From IMG/VR virus record IMGVR_UViG_3300045988_152007, positions 1-60,474 of that record: a DNA stretch of 60,474 nucleotides; one strand, written 5' to 3'. Every line of letters starts with the position of its first letter. Position 1 is the first letter of the stretch. Position numbers and translations under genes: made by a program. Of this stretch, positions 1,140-60,019 are shown piece by piece. A model generated the notes under the pieces. The model saw nothing but the letters and a program-made list of their open reading frames with translations, had not been told where the DNA came from and ran no database searches. The stretch comes from a virus.

Positions 1140-1540
1140 CAGCATATCGGATGAGGCACTCGCCGTCCGAGTCTTCTACTAAGGGCATATGACCTCCTGT
1201 TCGATGTAATTTTTTTACCTATACTATATGCCACTAATACAATTGGTCCTTTTGTATTTTAATACCAGTGGCGGAATTTAAACCGCACATTAAGAATAAA
1301 CAATAGTATGGTAGCTATGACCCGGTTTCATGGTCGCTTTACAGGATGGCAGTCAAAAGTTGTTACCATTCGCCTAAAATCTCCATCCAAACCTCAAATG
1401 AGGAAAACATCTAAGCCGTATCATTCGGATTTCCCGACTCATTTCGACTTGCGGATTTGTTACCTACCGCCGTACTACCTGCTAACCTTTCTATGTTAGC
1501 CCCGACCCGTCTGTTCAACTGCCGTTAGCTACTATTGTTT
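1140..1540. ncRNA. unassigned GC-rich non-coding block with several hairpins (e.g. GCGG-AATTTAAA-CCGC); candidate structured RNA
   Basis: GC content far above flanking coding DNA; no credible ORF; lies between two tRNA genes. Confidence 0.2.
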
Positions 1541-2465: not shown

Positions 2466-2540
2466 TGGCACCGGCTCTCAGAGTCGAACTGAGACTTGCT
2501 GATTTAGAGTCAGCTGAGCTAACCGTTACCCAAAGCCGGA
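2466..2540 (-). tRNA. amber suppressor tRNA, anticodon CUA (reads UAG); U1:U72 mismatch and G73 resemble tRNA-Gln identity
   Basis: Acceptor TCCGGCT/AGCCGGT, D-stem with G-U pairs, anticodon stem GCTGA/TCAGC, loop CTCTAAA, T-arm CTCAG-TTCGACT-CTGAG, G73, CCA encoded. Confidence 0.7.
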
Positions 2541-2559
2541 ATATATATACAAGACAGTT

Positions 2560-4040
2560 TAATAAAGTATCTTCTTATGAACCAAAAACATATGATTATC
2601 TTTAATAAAAATTTGCTGAAACTGTCTTAGAGAAATTATCCTAACTTCTCTTTATCTTGTAAATATATTATACTAAATAATTTTTTTAAAATCAAATTAT
2701 TCAGTAGAATATATTTACAAAAATTAATATATCCAATAGGAATAAACTACACCATAGCCACTAACCATTTATAGGTCGCCTCTATGCCTGCCCACGCCAC
2801 TAAGTACTTCAGCTTACCTCATTCATTAGCTATTGGAATATATTAAATTTTTGACCTACCATTAAACTTATAATACCTACCAATAGGAAGTAGAATATAC
2901 AGTTTTTAATAATAGGATTTTCATTCTATAATCTAACACAATAAATAATAACTCTACCTATTATATGTCTTTTTCGTAGTCCATTACGTCTCATTTTCCA
3001 CGCCTTTATATGAGAGACTACCAAGGATCTTATTTCCGCACTTGGTAATGGCTTTTTGGTATGTGAGCCACAAACATCCCTATTCAGCTTATTTATAGTG
3101 GAGAGCTGGCTGGTTTAGCGTATTGTTCCACTACCTAATTAACCAAGATTAGGACGCTAATCAAATATCTGATACGTATCAGTACGGTTTCCAGATATAT
3201 CATTTCACCGGACAACAGGCGAGTCAACCTTATTTGATTAGATTATGTAAGAACCCTACAGCCATAGGAGCAGGTTCCGCAGAGGCCTCTAACGATGTGG
3301 GATTGGCTACCCAATGAGGTTAATGTGCAAGCCACCGCCTATATTAGCATCTACATAATTCATTTCAAATAAATCATTTAATGATTTATTTTTAACAGGA
3401 AAGGAAATCGTAAGTTATTAAATAATAACTTAATTACAATTATACTACGGACCTTCGCCCTACTGGTTAATAATCTTCATTTTATTAGGTAAGTAAGGAA
3501 ACAAGTCTGAGCTATGAATAGCGACTTCATAACTTCTTGCCCCGGCCTAAGCCAAATCTCACAGAGGACTGACTACCTCTATCTTTCACCGACCATTCAG
3601 AATAGTATTACCAATAATTTTTACTAAATTAATATCATACTGTCTTGGCAAATTTCGGCTACTTGACCCTTGACCTTCTCTTATAGTAGATTACGCCACA
3701 TCAATTGCCAACTTCCTTATTGGTATTTCCTTGGTTTGGCAAGGTTACCAGCCTTACCCTAACAAGGATTCGGCATTGCTGTTAACAATGCTGTCTATTA
3801 TGGAAGCGAGAAGAACAGGACCTTAAATGCGATTATCCCAGCACAATCTCCCCGTAGCCGCATCCTTCGATGCGTGAATCTAATGTATCACTACAAAAGA
3901 TTTAGAAATAATTTCAAAGTATCCTTTGAATATTCCATTCTACAATCTCCGCCAGAGTGGATCGATTTCTCAGCCTTATGGTGTTAAGTCTGCACTGAGT
4001 TGTACTATAACCGTAATTAAATTATTATTTAATTTTTAAA
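2560..4040. other. 1.5 kb ORF-free block, AT-rich to 2950 then ~40% GC, with degenerate tRNA-like hairpins; probably transcribed from the promoter at 4060..4088
   Basis: No ORF >=60 aa; anticodon-like hairpin GCATTG-CTGTTAA-CAATGC near 3755; perfect palindrome CTGATACGTATCAG. Confidence 0.25.
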
Positions 4041-6191: not shown

Positions 6192-6839
6192 TTAAGCATA
6201 TTTCCATTTAAACTTAGCAGCTGTATTTCGTTTACATTTGCATACTTCAGAAATATGTTGTTTTATAGTAGTCATTTTACAATTAGTTAATTTATTTTCT
6301 ACCATAAATTTAGCTGCTTCAGTTGTTGATGGAAAAGTCCTTAAATAATTATCATTTAAATCATACATATTAATTATTTTCCCATACTTATTTTGAACTA
6401 TTTTAGCATTAGGAATAATATCAATTTTATATAATTTTAAAATTTTAGAAACTGAATCTTCACTAATATTTAATTGTTTAGCAGTATCTACAATACATTG
6501 TAAATTCTTATATGTTTCGCATACTAAATCATAGTCAATATATTGTTTGCCATCTCCGCCAATTGTAGCGTTATATCCATATTTAAAAGAACCTAATTTT
6601 TCAATCCAATAAACTTCTTTATCATTAAGTTCTTCTAATGGACATTCCTCTAACTCTTTAATAGAAAAATTTTCTGAACCATATTTATTCATTGCGTCAT
6701 ATAAAGGACGTTTTTCACATCTAGGTTTTTTATAATCTTTAAGATGTTCTTTCCAACGTTCCTAAATATTATTTTTTACTGTTTTACCAACATAAATTTT
6801 TCCATTAATATTATTTGTTATCTAATAAATGTATGCCAT
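6192..6839 (-). CDS. GIY-YIG homing endonuclease (I-TevI-like) with two in-frame TAG
   Basis: N-terminus MAYIYQITNNINGKIYVGKT...ERW matches the I-TevI GIYQI...KVYVGS...KRW motif; a TAG sits at the conserved Q (6822-6824). Confidence 0.8.
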
Positions 6840-30311: not shown

Positions 30312-30473
30312 TTCATATTGTCCTTCTCCTTTCATATTTAAAATTATTTTATATTGCTCTATACCTGTTGGACCGAAAATTTCTTAAATGGAATTTTAAT
30401 TCAAGCATTCGGTTTTAATGGTCCAAGTCGGCCCGAACCCCTATAACCTACTGTCTTTAAAATATATAAAAAA

Positions 30474-30508
30474 AAAGATGGACTGATTAATCTAATCAGT
30501 CCATCTTT
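30474..30508. terminator. perfect 16-bp hairpin AAAGATGGACTGATTA-ATC-TAATCAGTCCATCTTT
   Basis: Seen directly in the sequence; lies between the structural module and the tRNA array. Confidence 0.5.
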
Positions 30509-30547
30509 ACAGAAAGGATGAAATGCAATGAACGAATTTGAAACGAG

Positions 30548-30636
30548 TGGCGCGGAACTGAGGTGTCGATCCCCATCCCTATCACAGGACCACTTGTTTT
30601 CAAGACAAGGCTTACCGCCGGGTAAGTTAATTCCGC
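30548..30636 (-). tRNA. unusual type II tRNA, anticodon UGA (Ser), with Sec-like/allo-tRNA-like architecture (8-bp acceptor possible, 6-bp D-stem with 4-nt loop)
   Basis: D-stem CTTACC/GGTAAG with loop CGGC; anticodon stem CTTGT/ACAAG; loop CTTGAAA; long V-arm; G73; CCA. Confidence 0.45.
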
Positions 30637-31039
30637 ATATCATAATTGGCTATAGACCCTTAACTATCTATGATTTAAATACGCCACAATTACCATGAAG
30701 CTTAGCGATACCAATTATTTTAAAAAACAAGACTCATTGAAAAGCCAAAATAAAAACGCGGAATTTAGCTTACTAAACCAGCTAAAAAGAAAAAACTTTT
30801 CAAAATATACTTTATTTTCTTTATTATACTTTTTCATCTATTATTTGATAAGTAAGTATTGTAGAGCCTTTGTAGGCAAAAGTTTGCTGAAAATGAGTCT
30901 TAATATATGAGGGGTGGAAAAGAATACCTTGTTGTCTTTGCCCTCGACAAGGTTTAACCGTATTATACGAAAGTAGGGTTATGTTAATGTAAGATTAGTT
31001 TAAACATCATCGCCACGGGAAGGCTCTTACTTGATGACG

Positions 31040-31124
31040 CATAGGAGCAAGGGATTCGAACCCTGGATGTGTAGCTACAATTAGTTTTGGAGACTAACCC
31101 AATCGACCACTCTGGCACTCCTAC
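31040..31124 (-). tRNA. unusual tRNA with anticodon CCA and a long (15-nt) variable arm
   Basis: Acceptor GTAGGAG/CTCCTAT, D-arm CCAG-AGTGGTCGA-TTGG, anticodon arm TTAGT-CTCCAAA-ACTAA, V-arm TTGTAGCTACACATC, T-loop TTCGAAT. Confidence 0.45.
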
Positions 31125-31139
31125 ATATAATTATGTAAA

Positions 31140-31748
31140 TTAAATATATTTCCAAAAATATCCTTTACAACTTTTTCTTGTACCTTTATATACATCAGCA
31201 ATATGGTGAGTATTTCCATTTTCTTTCTCAGCTTCTGTTATTGAAGGATAAATTTTTAATATTTTATTAGTTTTTATATCAACCATAGCAACTGGCTTAT
31301 ATAAAGTTTGAATTCTTCTAATATCTCGTTCTTGTGGAGTTACCCCATGATTATCTAATGCTACTTTAATAGTATGATCATCATAATGAGTAATTTCATG
31401 AATTTGTTTATAATTATTACCTTGATTATATAAAGAATATATTAAATCATAATCTGCATAACGTTTTCCATCTCCACCAATCGTAGCATTATATCCATAT
31501 TTAAAAGATCCTAATTTTTCAATCCAATATTTTTCTCTTTCTTCTGGATCATTAGTTTCTTCAATAAGTTTAATATGAAAATGTTCTATTCCATATTTTC
31601 TCATTGCTGCATACAAAGGACGTTTTTCATTTCTTTCTCGAAAAGCATCATTACAATGTTTTTTAAAACGATTTTCAATAGAAGATTCAGTTTTACCAAT
31701 ATAAATTTTTTCATTTATGTCATTTGTTATCTAATAAATGTATGCCAT
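31140..31748 (-). CDS. GIY-YIG homing endonuclease with an in-frame TAG
   Basis: MAYIYQITNDINEKIYIGKT N-terminus joined to ORF 31140..31616. Confidence 0.7.
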
Positions 31749-31838
31749 AATTAAATAGCTCCTTTTCATTATATTATAAGGATTAGTTTAAATAGTATCA
31801 CCACGAAAAGGTCCCTTATATGATACCGCGGAATCGCC

Positions 31839-31922
31839 GCGACTCGAACGCGGACTACCTAAGAGGTAGGATGGATTAGCAATCCATTGGAATACCATTA
31901 TCCCACGACTCCAAATATAAAA
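31839..31922 (-). tRNA. tRNA-Ser(GCT), type II
   Basis: Acceptor GGAGTCG/CGATTCC, 3-bp D-stem, loop TTGCTAA, 17-nt V-arm, T-arm CCGCG-TTCGAGT-CGCGG, G73. Confidence 0.65.
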
Positions 31923-32384: not shown

Positions 32385-33035
32385 TCATATATATTTCCAG
32401 ATATAACCATATGCTGTTTTACGTTTTCCATTTGCACATTCAGCAATATGACTTCTAACTCCAGAATTATAATTTAGACATTTTTTATTTTCAAAACACC
32501 ATTGTCCAGCTTCTGCTACAGAATCAAAAGTATTAATTAATATTCCATTTTTATTATATTGCCTAATACTTTTGGATTTTTCTTTTTTCATCTATTCATT
32601 ACTTTGATTAATTATCTAAATTTGGTGTTCTTTAGCTATCTATTGAACTAAATCACAACTACAATTAAATAATTTAGCTATTTCAATTGGACGTGGATTT
32701 ATTCTTAATGCTTCTAAAATTTTTTGATGGTCATATTTTATCTTGCCATCTCCTCCTTTAGTAGCATTATATCCATATTTAAAAGAGTTTAATTTCTCAA
32801 TCCAATAAATTTCTTTTTCGCTAGCTTCTTCAGCAGAACATTCTTCTAATTCCTTAATAGAAAAATTTTCTGGACCATATTTATTTATTGCGTTATATAA
32901 AGGACGTTTTTCATATTTAGATTTTTTATAATCTCTTAAATATTCTTTCCAACGTTCCTAAATATTATTTTTTAATGTTTTACCAACATAAATTTTTCCA
33001 TTAATATTATTTGTTATCTAATAAATATAAGCCAT
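32385..33035 (-). CDS. GIY-YIG homing endonuclease (216 aa) with 5 in-frame TAG
   Basis: 651 nt in frame from ATG 33033-33035 to the stop of ORF 32385..32591; N-terminus MAYIYQITNNINGKIYVGKT. Confidence 0.7.
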
Positions 33036-33161
33036 AATTATTATCTCCTCCATAATATTATGGAAATTTTGGTTGCAAAATTAATTTTCCGCGACCAAAA
33101 ATTTTTTAATCAATTAGCATTACCCAAGATACGCCCCGTGGAGGCTTGATTAATGTATCTC

Positions 33162-33289: not shown

Positions 33290-33440
33290 TCGACCAGACA
33301 GTAGGACTCGAACCTACAACACACGGCTCCCAAAGCAAATTTATAATTGCTGTATTGTCTTTCATAAATGGTGGAGCCAGAGGGAATCGCACCCTCGACT
33401 TTGAATTAAATTCAACGTTTTCCTACCATAAACTATGTCC
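33290..33440 (-). other. two tandem degenerate tRNA-like elements (T-arm plus acceptor 3' strand; one has anticodon-like loop ATTTAAT)
   Basis: T-loops TTCGAGT and TGCGATT with flanking stems but imperfect or absent 5' acceptor strands. Confidence 0.25.
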
Positions 33441-33542
33441 CCAAATATGATGGTTATAAAACTTAATCTAATGCAGGCATCAGATTAATAGAACGCTCTA
33501 TCAAGTTCTATGTTTCAAAATCGCTTATATCGGGAAAGCGAA

Positions 33543-35676: not shown

Positions 35677-36270
35677 TCTATTTTATTCTATTATATTTAG
35701 GAAATAAAAGTAATTAATTAGCTCACTTCGTCCAAATTTATTTTTTTCGACTGAGCTACAACCGCATATCGCATTTCAGAGGTTCCGGACCCTCCTGAGC
35801 AGCGTCACTCAAATAAGATTTTGTCACCTAATTTTTAAAACCTTATCAAAAAACAAACCAGTTTTTTAGCTGAACCTTTAACTCCCTTTCCGTTTTTACT
35901 TATATGTCAAGAAACAACCAAAGAGAAAGTATAAAAAGATAACATATAGGCAGATCATTTATAGACGCACACTATAAACTCGTCTTGCGGTCATGTTATT
36001 TTATAATCAAGTAAGTAATAACTTCAACCGCATTTCTTTAACTTAAATAACCTTTAATAATAGTCCTATATTAAATAATTAGTTATGGGCGACTATTATT
36101 TCCCAGCTTTAATTAATCCTTCTATTGGAATTGAACCAATACCTCCGCCTCTTTCAGGCAGCATGCTTCCATTACACCAAGAAGTAATATACATATGGCT
36201 TATTTACATAACGATGGAGCCACCAACCACCGAGCCTTGATTATAGTGAGTATAGCTACTACTTCACTAT

Positions 36271-36346
36271 TGGTACCGGTGAAAGGACTCGAACCTTCAG
36301 ATTAATGATCCTAAATCATTCGCCTATGCCATTCGGCTACACCGGC
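36271..36346 (-). tRNA. type I tRNA with anticodon UAG (Leu CUN by anticodon, but short V-arm)
   Basis: Acceptor GCCGGTG/CACCGGT, anticodon stem AATGA/TCATT, loop TTTAGGA, T-arm GAAGG-TTCGAGT-CCTTT, A73, CCA. Confidence 0.5.
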
Positions 36347-36599: not shown

Positions 36600-36676
36600 T
36601 GGTGGGACAGAGAGGTATCGAACCTCCATCCTTTGGTTTTTCAGACCAATGCTCCGACCTCGTAAGCTACTGTCCC
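36600..36676 (-). tRNA. tRNA-Phe(GAA)
   Basis: Acceptor GGGACAG/CTGTCCC, loop CTGAAAA, T-arm GGAGG-TTCGATA-CCTCT, A73, CCA. Confidence 0.8.
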
Positions 36677-37011: not shown

Positions 37012-37159
37012 TGGTGGGGCCGGTTGGATTCGAACCAACGATTTGGCAATTTGGCCCAAAATGTTAGGTTTGAACTCACATCTTTCTTGCGCATAGACTA
37101 TTTTACCATTTAAACTAATCTTGGATAAGTTGCCGGCCTTACCGCTTGGCCACGACCCC
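37012..37159 (-). tRNA. tRNA with Gln-like D-arm split by a 73-nt anticodon-loop insertion (37055..37127); anticodon CCA under the U/G boundary rule, UCA or UAA under others
   Basis: Exon1 GGGGTCG-TG-GCC-AAGCGGTAA-GGC-C-GGCAA-CT; exon2 CCAAA-TTGCC-AAATC-GTTGG-TTCGAAT-CCAAC-CGGCCCC-A-CCA. Confidence 0.45.
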
Positions 37160-47802: not shown

Positions 47803-48582
47803 TCAAAAGCGGTCAATATTATTTACAGCATCATCCATTTTATCATGCCAGAGGAAAATATCTTCCAAAGGGTCGATACAATTAAAAAAGATAATATTAT
47901 GCTTATTAATAAATCTATCACAATGATAATGACCAAAGAGCCATACATCATATGTAATCATATTCTTAATTTCTTCAAGCCATTCTTCCATAGAAGTATC
48001 TACGGTAGATTGATCTACTATTGAAAGGAATTTATCAACTGGCCTAAGAGAATAAGGGCAGGTGTGTGATAGTACAAGATCAAAATGCTTATTAGTTTGT
48101 CGAATAAGCATTTCAGCATCAACTTTTTCTTTATTATTTAATTGTTCATCTTCCCACCAAAGCAAATTGTTTTTAAGACGATAATATTTATCAACAGAAT
48201 AAGCACCACCAATAACTAATGTACGATATTCTCTATCTTCGGTTTTAAGATAATAAATCCCGTAATTATCAAAATATCTAATCAGAGGGTGAGTCGGCTC
48301 ATACCATACATTAGCCTGAACATTGCTATCCCAAACACGCTCCATACCTTCAACGTTTTCAGGACGTACTTCATGATTGCCATGCACGCAATAAATAAAA
48401 TATCCAAACTGGCTTGCATATTCTTTCTTCATATTATCTCTGAATGCACTACCAGTATTAAAACCGCAGTCTCCAAGGATAATAATTGCGTAGTCTTTTG
48501 GATTTAAAATTCTAAACATTCTTGCATTAAGCCATGTGAAATCACCATGACAATCGCCTCTAATCAGATAGTCCTTGAACAT
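47803..48582 (-). CDS. calcineurin-like metallophosphoesterase
   Basis: ORF track 259 aa; motifs GDCHGD, GDCG, GNHE. Confidence 0.7.
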   Translation of the reverse strand: MFKDYLIRGDCHGDFTWLNARMFRILNPKDYAIIILGDCGFNTGSAFRDNMKKEYASQFGYFIYCVHGNHEVRPENVEGMERVWDSNVQANVWYEPTHPLIRYFDNYGIYYLKTEDREYRTLVIGGAYSVDKYYRLKNNLLWWEDEQLNNKEKVDAEMLIRQTNKHFDLVLSHTCPYSLRPVDKFLSIVDQSTVDTSMEEWLEEIKNMITYDVWLFGHYHCDRFINKHNIIFFNCIDPLEDIFLWHDKMDDAVNNIDRF

Positions 48583-48595
48583 TGAAGTTCCCTCC

Positions 48596-48787
48596 TTACG
48601 TATTTTCTTCTTTAGCCAGCTCTTCCTTTAATTTTTCTACTTTTTCTATAACTGCACTAAGCACAACAGCTTGAGCCCCAAATCTGGTAAAATGTTCAGT
48701 CAACCATTTACCAAGATCATCAAAATTGTTTTCAATTTCTTCAATATCTCGACTATCAATTTCAATAGTCATATTATCTTCAGACAT
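48596..48787 (-). CDS. small acidic hypothetical protein (63 aa)
   Basis: ORF track. Confidence 0.45.
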   Translation of the reverse strand: MSEDNMTIEIDSRDIEEIENNFDDLGKWLTEHFTRFGAQAVVLSAVIEKVEKLKEELAKEENT

Positions 48788-49595
48788 TTAACATTTCCTT
48801 TACAATTCTTTTTTTCATAATAAGATAAACAATCTTATTCATAAAATCTTCAAGTTCTTCATTACCTTCATCCTTGGTCTTAGAACAATAATCATCAGCT
48901 ACTCTTGTAATATTATTAATAGCAGTATTTGCTACAATTCGTGCAGTTTCAAGATCATAGTGATAATTTTTTACAGCAAGAAGATAATCACCCCTTGGTG
49001 CCTGAAGACAATCAGCATACTTAACCTCATCAATATAACGTCCAAGATACTGTTCGATACGAAGCAAATGCATAAGCTGCTTACTATCATAACCATATGT
49101 ATCAATCAGATGAGTTTTAGTAGGATATCTATGCTCCATTGCATGATATTTTTCCATAGCAATACCCTTCATTGTCTTAACTGCCTTGTAAGGATTATAA
49201 CGTGCAATAGCTTCACGCTCATTAAGCAGTGCCTGCCACTCATTCCAATACACGCTTGATGCCATTTTATAAGGTGTGAAGATACATTCAAGATATGCCA
49301 TATTCTGTTTCTTCAAACAATCAATGAACAAACGAATATCTTTAAAATCAATGTGTTCATCATTAGGAAGAATTTTGGTATAAGACACTGGCTTTTTATT
49401 CAATACAATATCTTCAAATGAAGGAAGAACAATAAGCCGGGTATCTACATCAGACAATTGAGTATCAAGACCATAGTTCTGGCTACCATAAGCCATTAAG
49501 CTAACCCAATTTTCTCCTCTGACATTAACTGCTTCTAAATGAGTTTCTACTTTATCCATAACCCATTTATCTAAATGGTAATTCATAATTATCAA
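48780..49595 (-). CDS. nucleotidyltransferase-fold protein (Pol-beta superfamily)
   Basis: ORF track 271 aa; GS...DVD motif (AYGSQNYGLDTQLSDVDTRLIV). Confidence 0.55.
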   Translation of the reverse strand: MIIMNYHLDKWVMDKVETHLEAVNVRGENWVSLMAYGSQNYGLDTQLSDVDTRLIVLPSFEDIVLNKKPVSYTKILPNDEHIDFKDIRLFIDCLKKQNMAYLECIFTPYKMASSVYWNEWQALLNEREAIARYNPYKAVKTMKGIAMEKYHAMEHRYPTKTHLIDTYGYDSKQLMHLLRIEQYLGRYIDEVKYADCLQAPRGDYLLAVKNYHYDLETARIVANTAINNITRVADDYCSKTKDEGNEELEDFMNKIVYLIMKKRIVKEMLNV

Positions 49596-58861: not shown

Positions 58862-60019
58862 TTAGTTCTCCTTTTTAAAATCAAAAATTGTTTTTAATTC
58901 TTCTACTTTATCAAGCTGTTCCCAAGGGCTATTACATTCAATACGACCAAAATGACCGAAGCAAGCATAGGGTAAATAGCGAGTATGTTTTAAATCAAAT
59001 TTATGAATAATACTACGCGGTGCAAAATCAAATGTCTGATTAACTGCTTCAAGAATTTCAGCGATAGGTTTCTTTTCTGTACCAAAACAATTAATATTAA
59101 TAGATACAGGTTCTGTCTGCCCAATAATATAAGCAACTTGAATCATACATTTATTACAAACACCAGAAGCTACAAGATTTTTAGCTACATAACGTGCCAT
59201 ATAAGCACCAGACCTATCTACTTTACAGGGCGACTTCCCTGAAAAACATCCCCCACCATGTGGAGCATAACCACCATATGTATCTACGACGATTTTACGT
59301 CCGGTTAATCCAATGTCAGCCGCAGGTCCACCAATTACGAATCTGCCTGTTGGGTTAATATAAAATTTACAATCTTTCTTAATGGCATAACCTTGAAGGG
59401 CAATATTACAAATGTTTGTAATATCGGGTGTTATTTCCTTAATACTATATTTGTCTTTGTGTTGGGCCGATACGACAATTGTATCTACCCCTTCAAAGTT
59501 GCCATCATCATCGTATTGGACAGTTATCTGACATTTGCCGTCAGGTAATGCCCAAGGTAGCAAATCATTTTTATACTTACTAAACATAATGACCGAGATA
59601 TTGTTAGCAAGTTGCTGGGCAATAGGCATATAATTTTCTGTTTCGTTAGTTGCATAACCAAACATCATGCCTTGATCTCCAGCACCATCCCTATCGACAC
59701 CCGCAGCGATGTCAGGGGATTGATTTACTACATTAATAATATATGAACAAGTGTCGCAGTTAAATCCTGCTTCATCATTGTCATAACCAATAAATCTTAA
59801 AGTCTCTCTTGCAATTTCCTGATAAGGAATAGATTGTTCTGTTTTAGCTGTAATCTCTCCCATGATGTGGAAAAGACCTGGACTAATAGTACATTCACAA
59901 GCTACTCGTGCATCAGGGTCAAGCTGGAGGACATAATCCAGAATAGCATCACTTACCTAATCACAAACCTTATCAGGGTGACCGGCAAAAACGCTCTCAC
60001 TGGTAAATAAATAACTCAT
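58862..60019 (-). CDS. metK: S-adenosylmethionine synthetase (MetK), 385 aa, with an in-frame TAG at 59957-59959 at the conserved Gln
   Basis: ORF 58862..59863 carries GAGDQGMMFGYA, GGPAADIGLTGRKIVVDTYGG and GGGCFSGK.P.KVDRSGAY; the upstream frame through the TAG gives [28 protein letters not shown], the MetK N-terminus; GGAGG precedes ATG 60017-60019. Confidence 0.8.

Follow-up and report, generated by a model that had tools for sequence, protein, structure and literature searches.

Two minus-strand tRNA genes of a TAG-recoded phage, here called tRNA-A and tRNA-B (Table 1), are probably working tRNAs that combine unusual bodies with standard codons and, judged from their sequences, would be charged by the seryl-tRNA synthetase (SerRS) and the tryptophanyl-tRNA synthetase (TrpRS) of the host, respectively. 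The window, i.e., the whole stretch of 60,474 nucleotides that was analysed, most likely belongs to a phage genome in which TAG is recoded and whose minus strand carries a large tRNA array; the phage probably infects Clostridia. In its conserved protein MetK, TGG encodes Trp and TAG encodes Gln.

Table 1. Positions of tRNA-A, tRNA-B and neighbouring features in the window.
Feature	Position	Strand	Description and basis
tRNA-A, (8/4) tRNA-Ser(UGA)	30548..30636	-	89 nt; sequence, MFE fold, homologues
tRNA-A acceptor	30636-30629 (5' strand); 30559-30552 (3' strand)	-	GCGGAAUU and AGUUCCGC; 8 bp
tRNA-A linker	30628-30627	-	AA
tRNA-A D stem-loop	30626-30611	-	6 bp (CUUACC/GGUAAG); 4-nt loop CGGC
tRNA-A anticodon arm	30609-30593	-	5-bp stem; loop CUUGAAA; anticodon UGA at 30602-30600
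tRNA-A V arm	30590-30575	-	5-bp stem
tRNA-A T arm	30574-30560	-	4-bp stem GGGG/CCUC
tRNA-A 3' end	30551; 30550-30548	-	G73; encoded CCA
tRNA-B, class II (long V arm) tRNA(CCA), most likely tRNA-Trp	31040..31124	-	85 nt to G73
tRNA-B acceptor	31124-31118 paired with 31047-31041	-	G1.U72, U2-A71; followed by U8 G9
tRNA-B D arm	31115-31099	-	UGCCAGAGUGGUCGAUUGG; CCAG/AGUGGUCGA/UUGG
tRNA-B anticodon arm	31097-31081	-	loop CUCCAAA; CCA at 31090-31088
tRNA-B V region	31080-31066	-	15 nt, UUGUAGCUACACAUC
tRNA-B T stem	31065-31061 paired with 31053-31048	-	one extra nucleotide
tRNA-B 3' end	31040	-	G73; CCA not encoded in the window
tRNA(CUA)	2466-2540		ARAGORN
Terminator-like hairpin	30464..30508	-	16-bp stem, then T run; ~40 nt downstream of tRNA-A; terminator scan
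GIY-YIG homing-endonuclease-like ORF	31140..31769	-	Pfam PF01541, E=1e-11; between tRNA-B and tRNA-Ser(GCU)
tRNA-Ser(GCU), canonical 7/5 class II	31828..31912	-	ARAGORN, Rfam tRNA 53.3 bits, fold
Class I tRNA, anticodon UAG, A73	36271..36346	-	76 nt

When TAG was read through, long-ORF coverage of the minus strand rose from 55 to 81%. A tRNA(CUA) gene was found in the window, and codon 21 of MetK is an in-frame TAG that aligned with a conserved Gln. Read-through of TGA raised the coverage only from 55 to 57%; reading of TGA by tRNA-B was rejected, as nothing pointed to recoding of TGA. In the phage MetK, both TGG codons were at invariant Trp residues, and one more match of Trp to Trp at a TGG was found in a radical SAM protein, a comparison of three codons with distant homologues in which low-level misincorporation would escape detection. 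The frequency of TGG was normal (13.8 per 1000 codons), and those of the serine codons UCU, UCA and AGU were 19.7, 9.3 and 17.6 per 1000, respectively. The hairpin downstream of tRNA-A probably ends the tRNA transcription unit. The GIY-YIG ORF was missing at the same position in the relatives L026 and L010, as revealed by local blastn synteny. tRNA-A and tRNA-Ser(GCU) together cover both serine codon boxes. Genes for an RlaP-family protein and a metallophosphatase, with a possible link to RNA repair, are also present in the window.

The 6-bp D stem, 4-nt D loop and possible 8-bp acceptor that the original prediction had described for tRNA-A were borne out by the MFE fold, which was an 8/4 cloverleaf, and by covariation among 96 distinct homologues; the anticodon was likewise UGA, as stated there. 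tRNA-A was not called by ARAGORN on the window, was unmatched by the Rfam tRNA model (RF00005) and scored 45.6 bits with the Rfam tRNA-Sec model, whose gathering score is 47. A family model (R1) gave tRNA-A 95.1 bits and found no second 8/4 tRNA in the window. Comparison with the tRNA and tRNA-Sec covariance models, the check proposed with the original prediction, scored neither tRNA-A nor tRNA-B as an ordinary tRNA, and the unusual structures were not refuted. A whole-window Rfam scan in gathering mode is uninformative on class II tRNAs, since it also missed the canonical tRNA-Ser(GCU), which scored 53 bits in a local search.

The homologues of tRNA-A, extracted from at least 119 viral contigs, comprised 125 copies, of which 96 were distinct. 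The UGA anticodon and the T arm were set by the scan pattern, and the family gives no information on the anticodon. Carriers included Lak megaphages, a 634-kb phage and the Pseudomonas phages Astolliot and Milchi, the latter a cultured phage. The structure was kept by the 96 distinct homologues with many compensatory changes, with 97.6% of cells paired. The covariation score was 0.759, compared to 0.185 in shuffled alignments and at most 0.13 with slid partners, and the fold of tRNA-A is not due to chance. Pairing of the 8-bp acceptor was complete in 91 of the 96 homologues, which had 49 distinct acceptor stems, and that of the 6-bp D stem in 82 of the 84 homologues with standard geometry (47 distinct D stems). 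In an alignment of 50 sequences, all six D-stem pairs showed compensatory changes and 99.7% of the cells were paired. The D loop was CGGC or UGGC in 80 of 84, and the 5-bp V stem also covaried. Moreover, pair 8:83 was never unpaired in the 50 sequences (UA 37, AU 6, GC 5, CG 1 and UG 1). A 7/5 fold was rejected because the fifth T-stem pair that it requires, 67:83, was unpaired in 12 of 50 without compensatory change, whereas 8:83 covaries. Finally, G1-C72 was found in 92 of the 96 homologues, and the discriminator base was G in 77, U in 18 and A in 1. tRNA-A carries C2-G71, as do 15 of the 96 family members, whereas bacterial tRNA-Ser mostly have G2-C71.

An (8/4) tRNA-Ser class, which is a subgroup of allo-tRNAs, has been reported in phages (Mukai et al., NAR 2017; PMC5389517). 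Its features, namely a 12-bp 8/4 branch, a Sec-like D stem with tetraloop, a long V arm, G73 and a Ser anticodon, are all present in tRNA-A, which we assign to this class from its sequence. The Sec-like or allo-tRNA architecture originally noticed was therefore correctly recognized. Given its Ser-type body (long V arm, G73 and G1-C72) and its Ser anticodon, tRNA-A is predicted to be a cognate decoder of UCN. ARAGORN called only 8 of the ~125 copies of (8/4) tRNA-Ser, and deposited genomes such as that of Pseudomonas phage Milchi carry no annotation for the 8/4 tRNA. Because of these misses by ARAGORN and Rfam and the absent annotation, phage tRNA inventories and codon-compensation analyses undercount serine tRNAs. 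Some phages, including L004, combined an 8/4 tRNA with a canonical Ser(UGA) tRNA, and in phage loci other than this one the serine tRNA that most often accompanied the 8/4 tRNA was Ser(GCU).

For tRNA-B, ARAGORN predicted a tRNA-Trp(CCA) at 31039..31124, and the CCA anticodon and 15-nt class II variable arm noted originally were confirmed. The original description lacked one feature: the spacing from the T loop to G73 is 13 rather than 12 nt. With the Rfam tRNA-Sec model tRNA-B scored 39 bits, which is below gathering yet above its score with the tRNA model because of the extra T-stem layer. Its MFE fold was not a cloverleaf. The V arm has a 3-bp stem and 3–4 unpaired 3' nucleotides. In the relatives L013 and L026 the 3' end is encoded as G-CCA, which rules out a shifted register with U73. 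An acceptor of 8 or 9 bp, as drawn by the tRNA-Sec model, was also rejected, as L169 has U.C and L172 has U.U in place of the eighth pair. When the T stem is drawn with 5 bp and a bulge, it preserves a pair, 49:65, that covaries in the family; for tRNA-B itself, a T stem of six layers, one of them a C.U mismatch, is an equally good drawing. The irregular T stem might weaken EF-Tu binding.

Scanning viral sequences for class II CCA tRNAs with a looser pattern identified at least 120 loci and at least 83 distinct sequences with V arms of 11–22 nt. Among the 83 distinct sequences listed there were 53 distinct V stems. tRNA-B shares with this family the CUCCAAA loop, a V arm of 11–22 nt with a short covarying stem, U72 and G73. 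An 86-nt member is annotated as tRNA-Trp in the cultured Caulobacter phage CcrColossus. Among the matches listed, the nearest relative of tRNA-B outside its own clade was a class II Trp tRNA with a near-identical V arm (L188). A strict pattern matched 75 of the 83 distinct viral sequences listed and gave 34 loci in all 185,579 genomes; the long-arm tRNA(CCA) family is phage-enriched. One long-arm tRNA-Trp form occurs in tRNA operons of Collinsella. In textbooks and reviews, tRNA-Trp is placed in class I (PMC4810241), and the literature searched yielded papers on allo-tRNAs and nothing on long-arm tRNA-Trp in phages.

The acceptor end of tRNA-B points to tryptophan. Bacterial tRNA-Trp has G73 (PMC5370408), and CCA and G73 are its identity elements (PMC9976931; PMC5370408); both are present in tRNA-B. 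In 81 of the class II Trp tRNAs listed, the 1:72 pair was A-U in 38 and G.U in 29, U72 was found in 83% and G73 in 77 (95%). Class I phage Trp tRNAs look alike, with G73 in 42 of 46 and G.U at 1:72 in 6 of 46. The first pair of tRNA-B, G1.U72, keeps U72 and differs at position 1 from the Trp-type A1-U72. The class I body of tRNA-Trp, with a short variable loop and a 7/5 branch, is not found in tRNA-B. Phage Tyr tRNAs had A73 in 57 of 60 and G1-C72 in 51 of 60. The V-arm geometry of tRNA-B fits its family and the phage Tyr tRNAs; Ser tRNAs mostly have stems of at least 5 bp.

In the proposed scheme, the host SerRS would charge tRNA-A irrespective of its anticodon, by way of the long variable arm, G73 and G1-C72. 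tRNA-A would then read UCA/UCN and tRNA-Ser(GCU) would read AGY, giving one serine tRNA per codon box. tRNA-B would be a tRNA-Trp(CCA) whose body is of class II, with a D arm of the Ser/Tyr type, a short-stemmed, Tyr-like V arm and an extra T-stem layer. The host TrpRS would charge it via CCA, G73 and U72, so that UGG remains Trp. Both tRNAs would be expressed and used in the phage. The original prediction had taken tRNA-A, tRNA-B and the type I tRNA with anticodon UAG, whose type and anticodon were confirmed, to suggest additional layers of decoding manipulation. This suggestion was not supported for any of the three: tRNA-A joins a Ser body to a Ser anticodon in a known class that is found in cultured phages; tRNA-B has a Trp acceptor-end signature, a relative annotated as tRNA-Trp in CcrColossus and TGG codons at invariant Trp residues of MetK to argue against it; and short-arm Leu-anticodon tRNAs with A73 are common in phage tRNA arrays, with 76 distinct ones in the loci analysed. 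Odd tRNAs in this genome do not imply more codon reassignment; TGG stays Trp and TAG is read as Gln.

Why such shapes persist is a separate question. We consider it possible, if on the unlikely side, that 8/4 Ser, class II Trp and class I Leu tRNAs serve counter-defence, being chargeable by the host and poor substrates for nucleases or toxins, a reading that is compatible with the scheme above. Evasion of tRNA-targeting defences by phage tRNAs has been documented (PMC10264068; PMC11464382; PMC11555353). The enrichment of these shapes in phages, the co-carriage of 8/4 and canonical Ser(UGA) tRNAs and the putative RNA-repair proteins in the window are consistent with such a role. However, no nuclease specific for the bodies of Ser(UGA) or Trp tRNAs is known for these hosts, published escape cases work through the anticodon loop rather than the body shape, and similar diversity would be expected from neutral drift in phage tRNA arrays, which evolve fast. 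It may be speculated, with more reserve, that phages systematically remodel tRNA bodies into a private pool that is charged by the host and unseen by immune nucleases and toxins, of which tRNA-A and tRNA-B would be two examples. Remodelled bodies in the loci studied here included 8/4 Ser tRNAs, long-arm tRNAs with Trp, Thr, Cys, Lys, Asn, Ile and His anticodons and short-arm Leu tRNAs. If defence evasion is their role, the escape mechanism of the anticodon loop would extend to remodelling of the whole body. In a rarer variant of the private pool, tRNA-B may be partly serylated and, late in infection, place Ser at a subset of UGG codons.

It is improbable that tRNA-B is a decaying or non-translational gene, such as a pseudogene, decoy or processing element, whose T stem bars normal translation. 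The extra nucleotide at the junction of T stem and acceptor, drawn as a C.U mismatch or a bulge, would fit decay, as would the lack of an encoded CCA in the window, the failure to reach Rfam gathering scores and the non-cloverleaf MFE fold. However, the same one-nucleotide irregularity is found again in unrelated family members (L169; L172 and L223), the 49:65 pair of the bulged drawing covaries (C-G, G-C and A-U) and all other helices of tRNA-B are intact. In addition, tRNA-B is kept without disabling changes in L010, L013, L026 and L285, two of which encode G-CCA as mentioned above, and the sole V-stem substitution still pairs (U-A to U.G); the four clade members are near-identical, and their conservation thus tells little on function.

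Quite improbable, too, is a serine-accepting missense tRNA, i.e., a Ser(CGA)-like gene in which G35 was changed to C and which SerRS charges to place Ser at some UGG codons. tRNA-B has the same D arm as canonical phage tRNA-Ser genes, its anticodon loop, CUCCAAA, is one base apart from the Ser(CGA) loop, CUCGAAA, and a long V arm and G73 are also serine determinants; thus, some serylation of tRNA-B is possible. SerRS does not depend on the anticodon, and tRNA-Ser with a mutated anticodon causes mistranslation (PMC9976931), and allo-tRNAs with non-Ser anticodons insert Ser in Escherichia coli (PMC5389517; PMC7609411). Moreover, Ser-bodied CCA tRNAs with G1-C72, G2-C71 and long V stems were found in a few bacterial genomes (L281, L284 and L302). 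However, G1-C72 and G2-C71, which are conserved in bacterial tRNA-Ser (PMC9976931) and were present in 94 and 101 of 108 phage Ser tRNAs (87–94%), are replaced in tRNA-B by G1.U72 and U2-A71. Its U72 is common to 83% of the class II Trp tRNAs listed, and its short V stem with 3–4 unpaired nucleotides is a non-Ser geometry, the serine type being a long helix with ~1 unpaired 3' nucleotide, which leaves G73 as the only element in common with the Ser identity set. A class II Trp tRNA as the nearest out-of-clade relative among the matches listed, the TGG codons at invariant Trp residues of MetK and the normal TGG frequency also argue against serine. Recent origin of tRNA-B from Ser(CGA) by anticodon mutation, considered for the identical D arm, is unlikely from the acceptor and V-arm signatures.

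Finally, that tRNA-A is a selenocysteine-type or stop-reading tRNA, as its Sec-like D arm and near-gathering tRNA-Sec score could suggest, or that the locus is instead the overlapping 80-aa mechanical ORF 30401..30643, is extremely improbable: the acceptor/T branch is 12 bp (8/4) with anticodon UGA, compared to 13 bp (8/5) and UCA in bacterial tRNA-Sec (RF01852), TGA read-through hardly raised ORF coverage, the RNA-type covariation holds among phages with differing flanks, and the strong terminator hairpin within the ORF argues against its being a gene. Membership in tRNA-Sec was rejected for both tRNAs, which scored below the RF01852 gathering score, and no selenocysteine machinery was seen within the window.

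The preferred reading of tRNA-B as tRNA-Trp bears on more than this phage. Long-arm tRNA-Trp is widespread in phages, and the rule that separates class I from class II tRNAs is not absolute. It also bears on identity rules, on tRNA evolution, including a possible link between Tyr and Trp, and on orthogonal scaffolds for code expansion.

Among known systems, the (8/4) tRNA-Ser of phages (PMC5389517) shares with tRNA-A the 8-bp acceptor and 4-bp T stem, the long D stem with tetraloop, the long V arm, G73 (U73 in some relatives), the Ser anticodon and the location in a phage tRNA cluster. [quoted passage not shown] There is no essential difference between them; tRNA-A has C2-G71 and belongs to a TAG-recoded phage. 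Different from tRNA-A with its Ser anticodon, most allo-tRNAs have non-serine anticodons and may mistranslate. Class I tRNA-Trp(CCA) of bacteria and phages has the CUCCAAA loop, G73 and U72 in common with tRNA-B, which differs by its 15-nt variable arm in place of a 4–5-nt loop, its class II D arm and its extra T-stem nucleotide. Bacterial class II tRNA-Tyr shares with the tRNA-B family the D-arm type and the V arm with a 3–4-bp stem and ~3 unpaired nucleotides, but has A73, G1-C72 and anticodon GUA where tRNA-B has G73, U72 and CCA. TyrRS and TrpRS are sister enzymes of class Ic. Allo-tRNAs with non-Ser anticodons and nematode V-arm tRNAs (cited in PMC5389517) are similar to tRNA-B in joining a long arm to an anticodon outside Ser, Leu and Tyr. 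However, such mistranslating class II tRNAs retain the Ser or Leu identity set, whereas the acceptor end of tRNA-B matches the amino acid of its own anticodon.

All long ORFs and all tRNA genes of the window were on the minus strand. When TAG was read through, the share of the window covered by ORFs of 100 codons or more increased from 55 to 81%; for TGA, the corresponding increase was just from 55 to 57%. ARAGORN called 13 tRNAs in the window, a tRNA(CUA) among them, and Rfam found two further tRNA matches plus a ROOL RNA and a RAGATH-33 RNA. Based on the readthrough coverage, the tRNA(CUA) and these tRNA counts, the window is a piece of a phage genome in which TAG is recoded and which carries a large tRNA array. 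The sole in-frame TAG of the phage S-adenosylmethionine synthetase (MetK) gene, codon 21, aligned with a conserved Gln in the ADQISDA motif of E. coli MetK. The ROOL and RAGATH-33 RNAs lie on either side of the tRNA(CUA) suppressor region.

Features of the window discussed in the text
Feature	Position	Strand	Remark
RAGATH-33 RNA	1417..1529	-	Rfam, 139 bits
tRNA(CUA)	2466-2540	-	ARAGORN
ROOL RNA	3430..4023	-	full-length; Rfam, 323 bits
ORF	6192..6839	-	paralog of 31140..31769
Mechanical ORF	30401..30643		dismissed as a gene
Terminator-like hairpin	~40 nt downstream of tRNA-A	-	16-bp stem, then T run
tRNA-A	30548..30636	-	anticodon UGA
tRNA-B	31040..31124	-	anticodon CCA
GIY-YIG endonuclease ORF	31140..31769	-	Pfam-supported domain
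tRNA-Ser(GCU)	31828..31912	-	canonical
ORF	32385..33053	-	paralog of 31140..31769
tRNA	33372..33442	-	Rfam, 48.5 bits; no ARAGORN call
tRNA, called Phe	36116..36186	-	anticodon AAA, 71 nt; Rfam low score, 38 bits
tRNA, class I	36271..36346	-	anticodon UAG, A73
tRNA-Phe(GAA)	36600..36676	-	normal
tRNA match	37015..37159	-	spans 145 nt; Rfam, 46.6 bits
Calcineurin-like phosphoesterase	47803..48582	-	adjoins RlaP-family gene
RlaP-family protein	48780..49586	-	RNA repair pathway; Pol-beta-like nucleotidyltransferase
MetK	58862..60019	-

At minimum free energy, tRNA-A, with its UGA anticodon, folded into a cloverleaf. Its 6-bp D stem, closed by a 4-nt loop, and its 8-bp acceptor stem agree with the original prediction, which had given the latter as possible; the variable (V) stem has 5 bp and the T stem 4 bp. 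Its sequence (reverse complement) is GCGGAAUU-AA-CUUACC-CGGC-GGUAAG-C-CUUGU-CUUGAAA-ACAAG-UG-GUCCU-GUGAUA-GGGAU-GGGG-AUCGACA-CCUC-AGUUCCGC-G-CCA. It was neither called by ARAGORN nor matched by the Rfam general tRNA model, and it scored 45.6 bits with the tRNA-Sec model, whose gathering score is 47. tRNA-B scored 39 bits with the tRNA-Sec model, under the gathering score and better than with the tRNA model; neither tRNA was scored as ordinary. A mechanical ORF overlapping tRNA-A was dismissed as a gene because a terminator-like hairpin lies within it. Mtd_N-domain (tail-fibre-like) proteins were encoded downstream of tRNA-A. Searched with a covariance model of the family that has this 8-bp acceptor/4-bp T stem (8/4), the window gave no second 8/4 tRNA.

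By blastn against cultured and deposited phages, the tRNA-A element was found in Lak megaphages, a 634-kb uncultured phage and the cultured Pseudomonas phages Milchi (PQ464597; L002 1484..1577) and Astolliot (OM982621), in both of which the 8/4 tRNA-Ser(UGA) is unannotated. A pattern scan of IMG/VR identified kin in at least 119 contigs; the pattern itself demanded the anticodon loop and the T arm, which alone accounts for their invariance in this set. At least 125 copies, at least 96 of them distinct, were extracted, and ARAGORN called just 8 of about 125. Among the matches listed, all eight acceptor pairs were formed in 91 of the 96 distinct copies (49 different acceptor stems) and all six D-stem pairs in 82 of the 84 with standard geometry (47 different D stems), and the D loop was CGGC or UGGC in 80/84. 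In a 50-sequence alignment, 97.6% of the cells were paired in the 8/4 structure, and its covariation score was 0.759, compared with 0.185 for shuffled alignments and at most 0.13 with the partners slid. The alternative 7/5 fold left its fifth T-stem pair unpaired in 12 of the 50 sequences, with zero compensatory change. The nucleotide after the T stem covaried with position 8 (UA 37, AU 6, GC 5, CG 1, UG 1; none unpaired), which decided that the fold is 8/4, not 7/5.

The 8/4 family also carried serine determinants, with G1-C72 in 92/96 and a G or U discriminator (position 73) in 95/96 among the matches listed. Because its body and anticodon agree, tRNA-A is predicted to be a cognate tRNA, not a recoding device. 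The sole other serine tRNA in the window was tRNA-Ser(GCU), and Ser(GCU) was also the commonest serine tRNA beside the 8/4 tRNA in other phages; the two would jointly cover UCN and AGY. The phage used UCU, UCA and AGU at 19.7, 9.3 and 17.6 per 1000 codons, respectively.

The CCA anticodon and 15-nt variable region noticed earlier for tRNA-B were evident in its sequence (reverse complement), GUAGGAG-UG-CCAG-AGUGGUCGA-UUGG-G-UUAGU-CUCCAAA-ACUAA-UUGUAGCUACACAUC-CAGGG-UUCGAAU-CCCUUG-CUCCUAU-G. The G at 31040 was assigned to position 73 because two related viral contigs, L013 and L026, encode G-CCA at this 3' end. From the T loop to G73 there are 13 nucleotides, not 12, which is why the tRNA-Sec model, drawing a 9-bp acceptor stem, outscored the tRNA model. 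The extra T-stem nucleotide was also found in three unrelated family members (L169; L172 and L223); an eighth pair in the acceptor stem was rejected, because in these members it would consist of U.C or U.U. Drawn as a bulge, it leaves a closing T-stem pair of C-G in tRNA-B, G-C in L169 and A-U in L172. For tRNA-B itself, an equally good drawing, as in L188, gives the T stem six layers, one of them a C.U mismatch, and leaves a V arm of 14 nt. L188, a class II (long V arm) Trp tRNA with the V arm UUGUUAAUACACAU, was the nearest relative beyond the clade of tRNA-B among the matches listed. Under either drawing, the independent recurrence of this irregularity argues against simple decay of tRNA-B.

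Acceptor ends of all ARAGORN-called tRNAs in the fetched phage loci
tRNA	n	1:72	2:71	Discriminator
Class II Trp	81	A-U 38, G.U 29	not distinctive	G 77
Class I (short V arm) Trp	46	A-U 24, G-C 13, G.U 6	not distinctive	G 42
Ser	108	G-C 94	G-C 101	G 87
Tyr	60	G-C 51	G-C 47	A 57

The acceptor end of tRNA-B (G1.U72, U2-A71, G73) reads as the Trp pattern, without either Ser acceptor pair. Its V arm consists of U, a UGU/ACA stem, an AGCU loop and CAU(C). Similar to tRNA-B, phage Tyr tRNAs and most of the long-arm CCA family had a short V stem and 3–4 unpaired 3' nucleotides, whereas V stems of Ser tRNAs were mostly at least 5 bp with about one unpaired nucleotide. Published identity rules agree with the Trp assignment: Trp identity lies in the discriminator (G73 in bacteria), the anticodon and the first pair, and bacterial tRNA-Ser has conserved G1-C72 and G2-C71 and is recognized chiefly via its V arm (PMC9976931, PMC5370408). 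The two TGG codons of MetK (156 and 366) both aligned with invariant Trp positions in the LPW and PWE motifs of the E. coli protein, and a radical SAM protein gave one more W-W match at TGG, which was used at 13.8 per 1000 codons. No sign of TGG reassignment was found, sequence alone being blind to low-level misincorporation. CCA anticodons on Ser-type bodies (G1-C72, G2-C71, G73, V regions of 18–20 nt) were observed in Pelagibius sp. 7325 (L281), a Saccharibacteria MAG (L284) and an Acidimicrobiia MAG (L302). These are real candidates for mistranslating bacterial tRNAs that would place Ser at UGG; tRNA-B, whose acceptor end and V arm differ, does not belong to this type.

Near-identical copies of tRNA-B were present in three related viral contigs (L010, L013 and L026) and in L285, differing only in the V region, where a single V-stem change preserves pairing. 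L285 (JALFQD010000068), a 2.7-kb contig of the Clostridium sp. MAG SUG910 bin, retained a part of tRNA-B identical to that of the window, the rest being cut by the contig end, and matched the stretch separating tRNA-A from tRNA-B at 87% identity, a weak hint at a Clostridia host of the phage or, alternatively, at phage contamination of the bin. A wider IMG/VR scan (CUCCAAA then GGUUCGAAUCC at class II distance) matched at least 120 loci with at least 83 distinct cloverleaf-forming long-arm tRNA(CCA), whose V arms ranged from 11 to 22 nt. Caulobacter phage CcrColossus, which is cultured, carries a member of 86 nt under the annotation tRNA-Trp. In 114 phage loci picked for the unrelated 8/4 tRNA, each of the 41 distinct Trp tRNAs was class I, and long-arm tRNA-Trp is a minority form among phage Trp tRNAs. 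With a stricter pattern that 75 of the 83 viral sequences fit, just 34 loci turned up among 185,579 genomes of bacteria and archaea; with the comparison uneven, the viral pattern being looser and its locus count a lower bound, long-arm tRNA-Trp appears phage-enriched. The 34 loci included apparent chromosomal Collinsella tRNA operons whose tRNA-Trp combined a class I D arm with a 15-nt V arm, and bacteria too seem to carry long-arm tRNA-Trp. Such tRNA-Trp(CCA) was found in L298 (7020-7062; Collinsella aerofaciens isolate, NZ_JAQLFJ010000002), L282 and L278/L294/L300. In L278 and L294 it was last in a cellular-looking operon (Gln-Met-Phe-Asn-Gly-Ile-Ser-Ser-Arg-Cys-Trp), and the Collinsella loci L282 and L298 had the same long-arm tRNA-Trp. 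The family of tRNA-B is widespread and has database annotations; no description of it was found in the searchable literature.

Other unusual tRNAs were also identified. The class I tRNA with anticodon UAG, likewise noticed earlier, was present and was one of 76 distinct short-arm Leu-anticodon tRNAs in the fetched phage loci (UAG 34, CAA 19, UAA 16; A73 in the examples inspected). This form is common and recurrent in phage tRNA arrays, whereas bacterial tRNA-Leu is class II. The anticodon arm of the tRNA at 33372..33442 could be drawn as UUGA-AUUUAAU-UCAA or, alternatively, as a 5-bp stem with a 5-nt loop. On the 4-bp stem its anticodon is UUA, which would read UAA (UAG by wobble), and it may be a second suppressor-type tRNA; TAA still appears to be a stop codon in this genome. 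The match at 37015..37159 had normal acceptor, D and T arms and an insert of about 73 nt in its anticodon loop (GGCAA-CUUAUCC...AAA-UUGCC), too short for a group I intron. The tRNA with anticodon AAA was near the normal tRNA-Phe(GAA), and A34 in a Phe anticodon is unusual. At the site matching that of tRNA-B, viral locus L001 (5178-5263, minus strand) encoded a class II tRNA of about 86 nt with a UGU (Thr) anticodon. The same family was found in L005, L008, L011, L012, L018, L019, L022, L023, L031, L032 and L034, with discriminator U in all except one, G1-C72 and C2-G71 shared and CCA mostly encoded. Further long-arm tRNAs had GCA (Cys; L016, L029) and UUU (Lys; L033) anticodons, and ARAGORN calls of at least 82 nt also included Asn, His, Ile, Met and Gln anticodons.

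The GIY-YIG ORF between tRNA-B and tRNA-Ser(GCU) looks like a mobile insertion, typical for a phage tRNA cluster, because it was missing at the same site in L010 and in L026, where tRNA-B and tRNA-Ser(GCU) sit side by side in the latter. It shared an N-terminal motif with two paralogous ORFs among the tRNA genes; GIY-YIG was confirmed (Pfam) for 31140..31769. The adjoining RlaP-family and phosphoesterase genes may form an RNA/tRNA repair module, which, if true, would fit phage–host conflict over tRNAs.

The original prediction took these tRNAs to suggest decoding manipulation beyond TAG. The non-canonical architectures held; additional manipulation was not supported, because such forms recur among phage tRNAs and their bodies agree in identity with their anticodons, and the evidence points to probable ordinary decoding, Ser at UCN by tRNA-A and Trp at UGG by tRNA-B. 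Evasion of tRNA-targeting host defences would be a plausible reason for phages to retain such bodies (PMC10264068, PMC11464382, PMC11555353). The allo-tRNAs of Mukai et al., which surfaced among near-threshold matches to the tRNA-Sec model, have an 8/4 or 9/3 branch and combine a long V arm with a D arm like that of tRNA-Sec (PMC5389517). tRNA-A, with an 8/4 branch and the same kinds of D and V arm, is a member of this published tRNA class.
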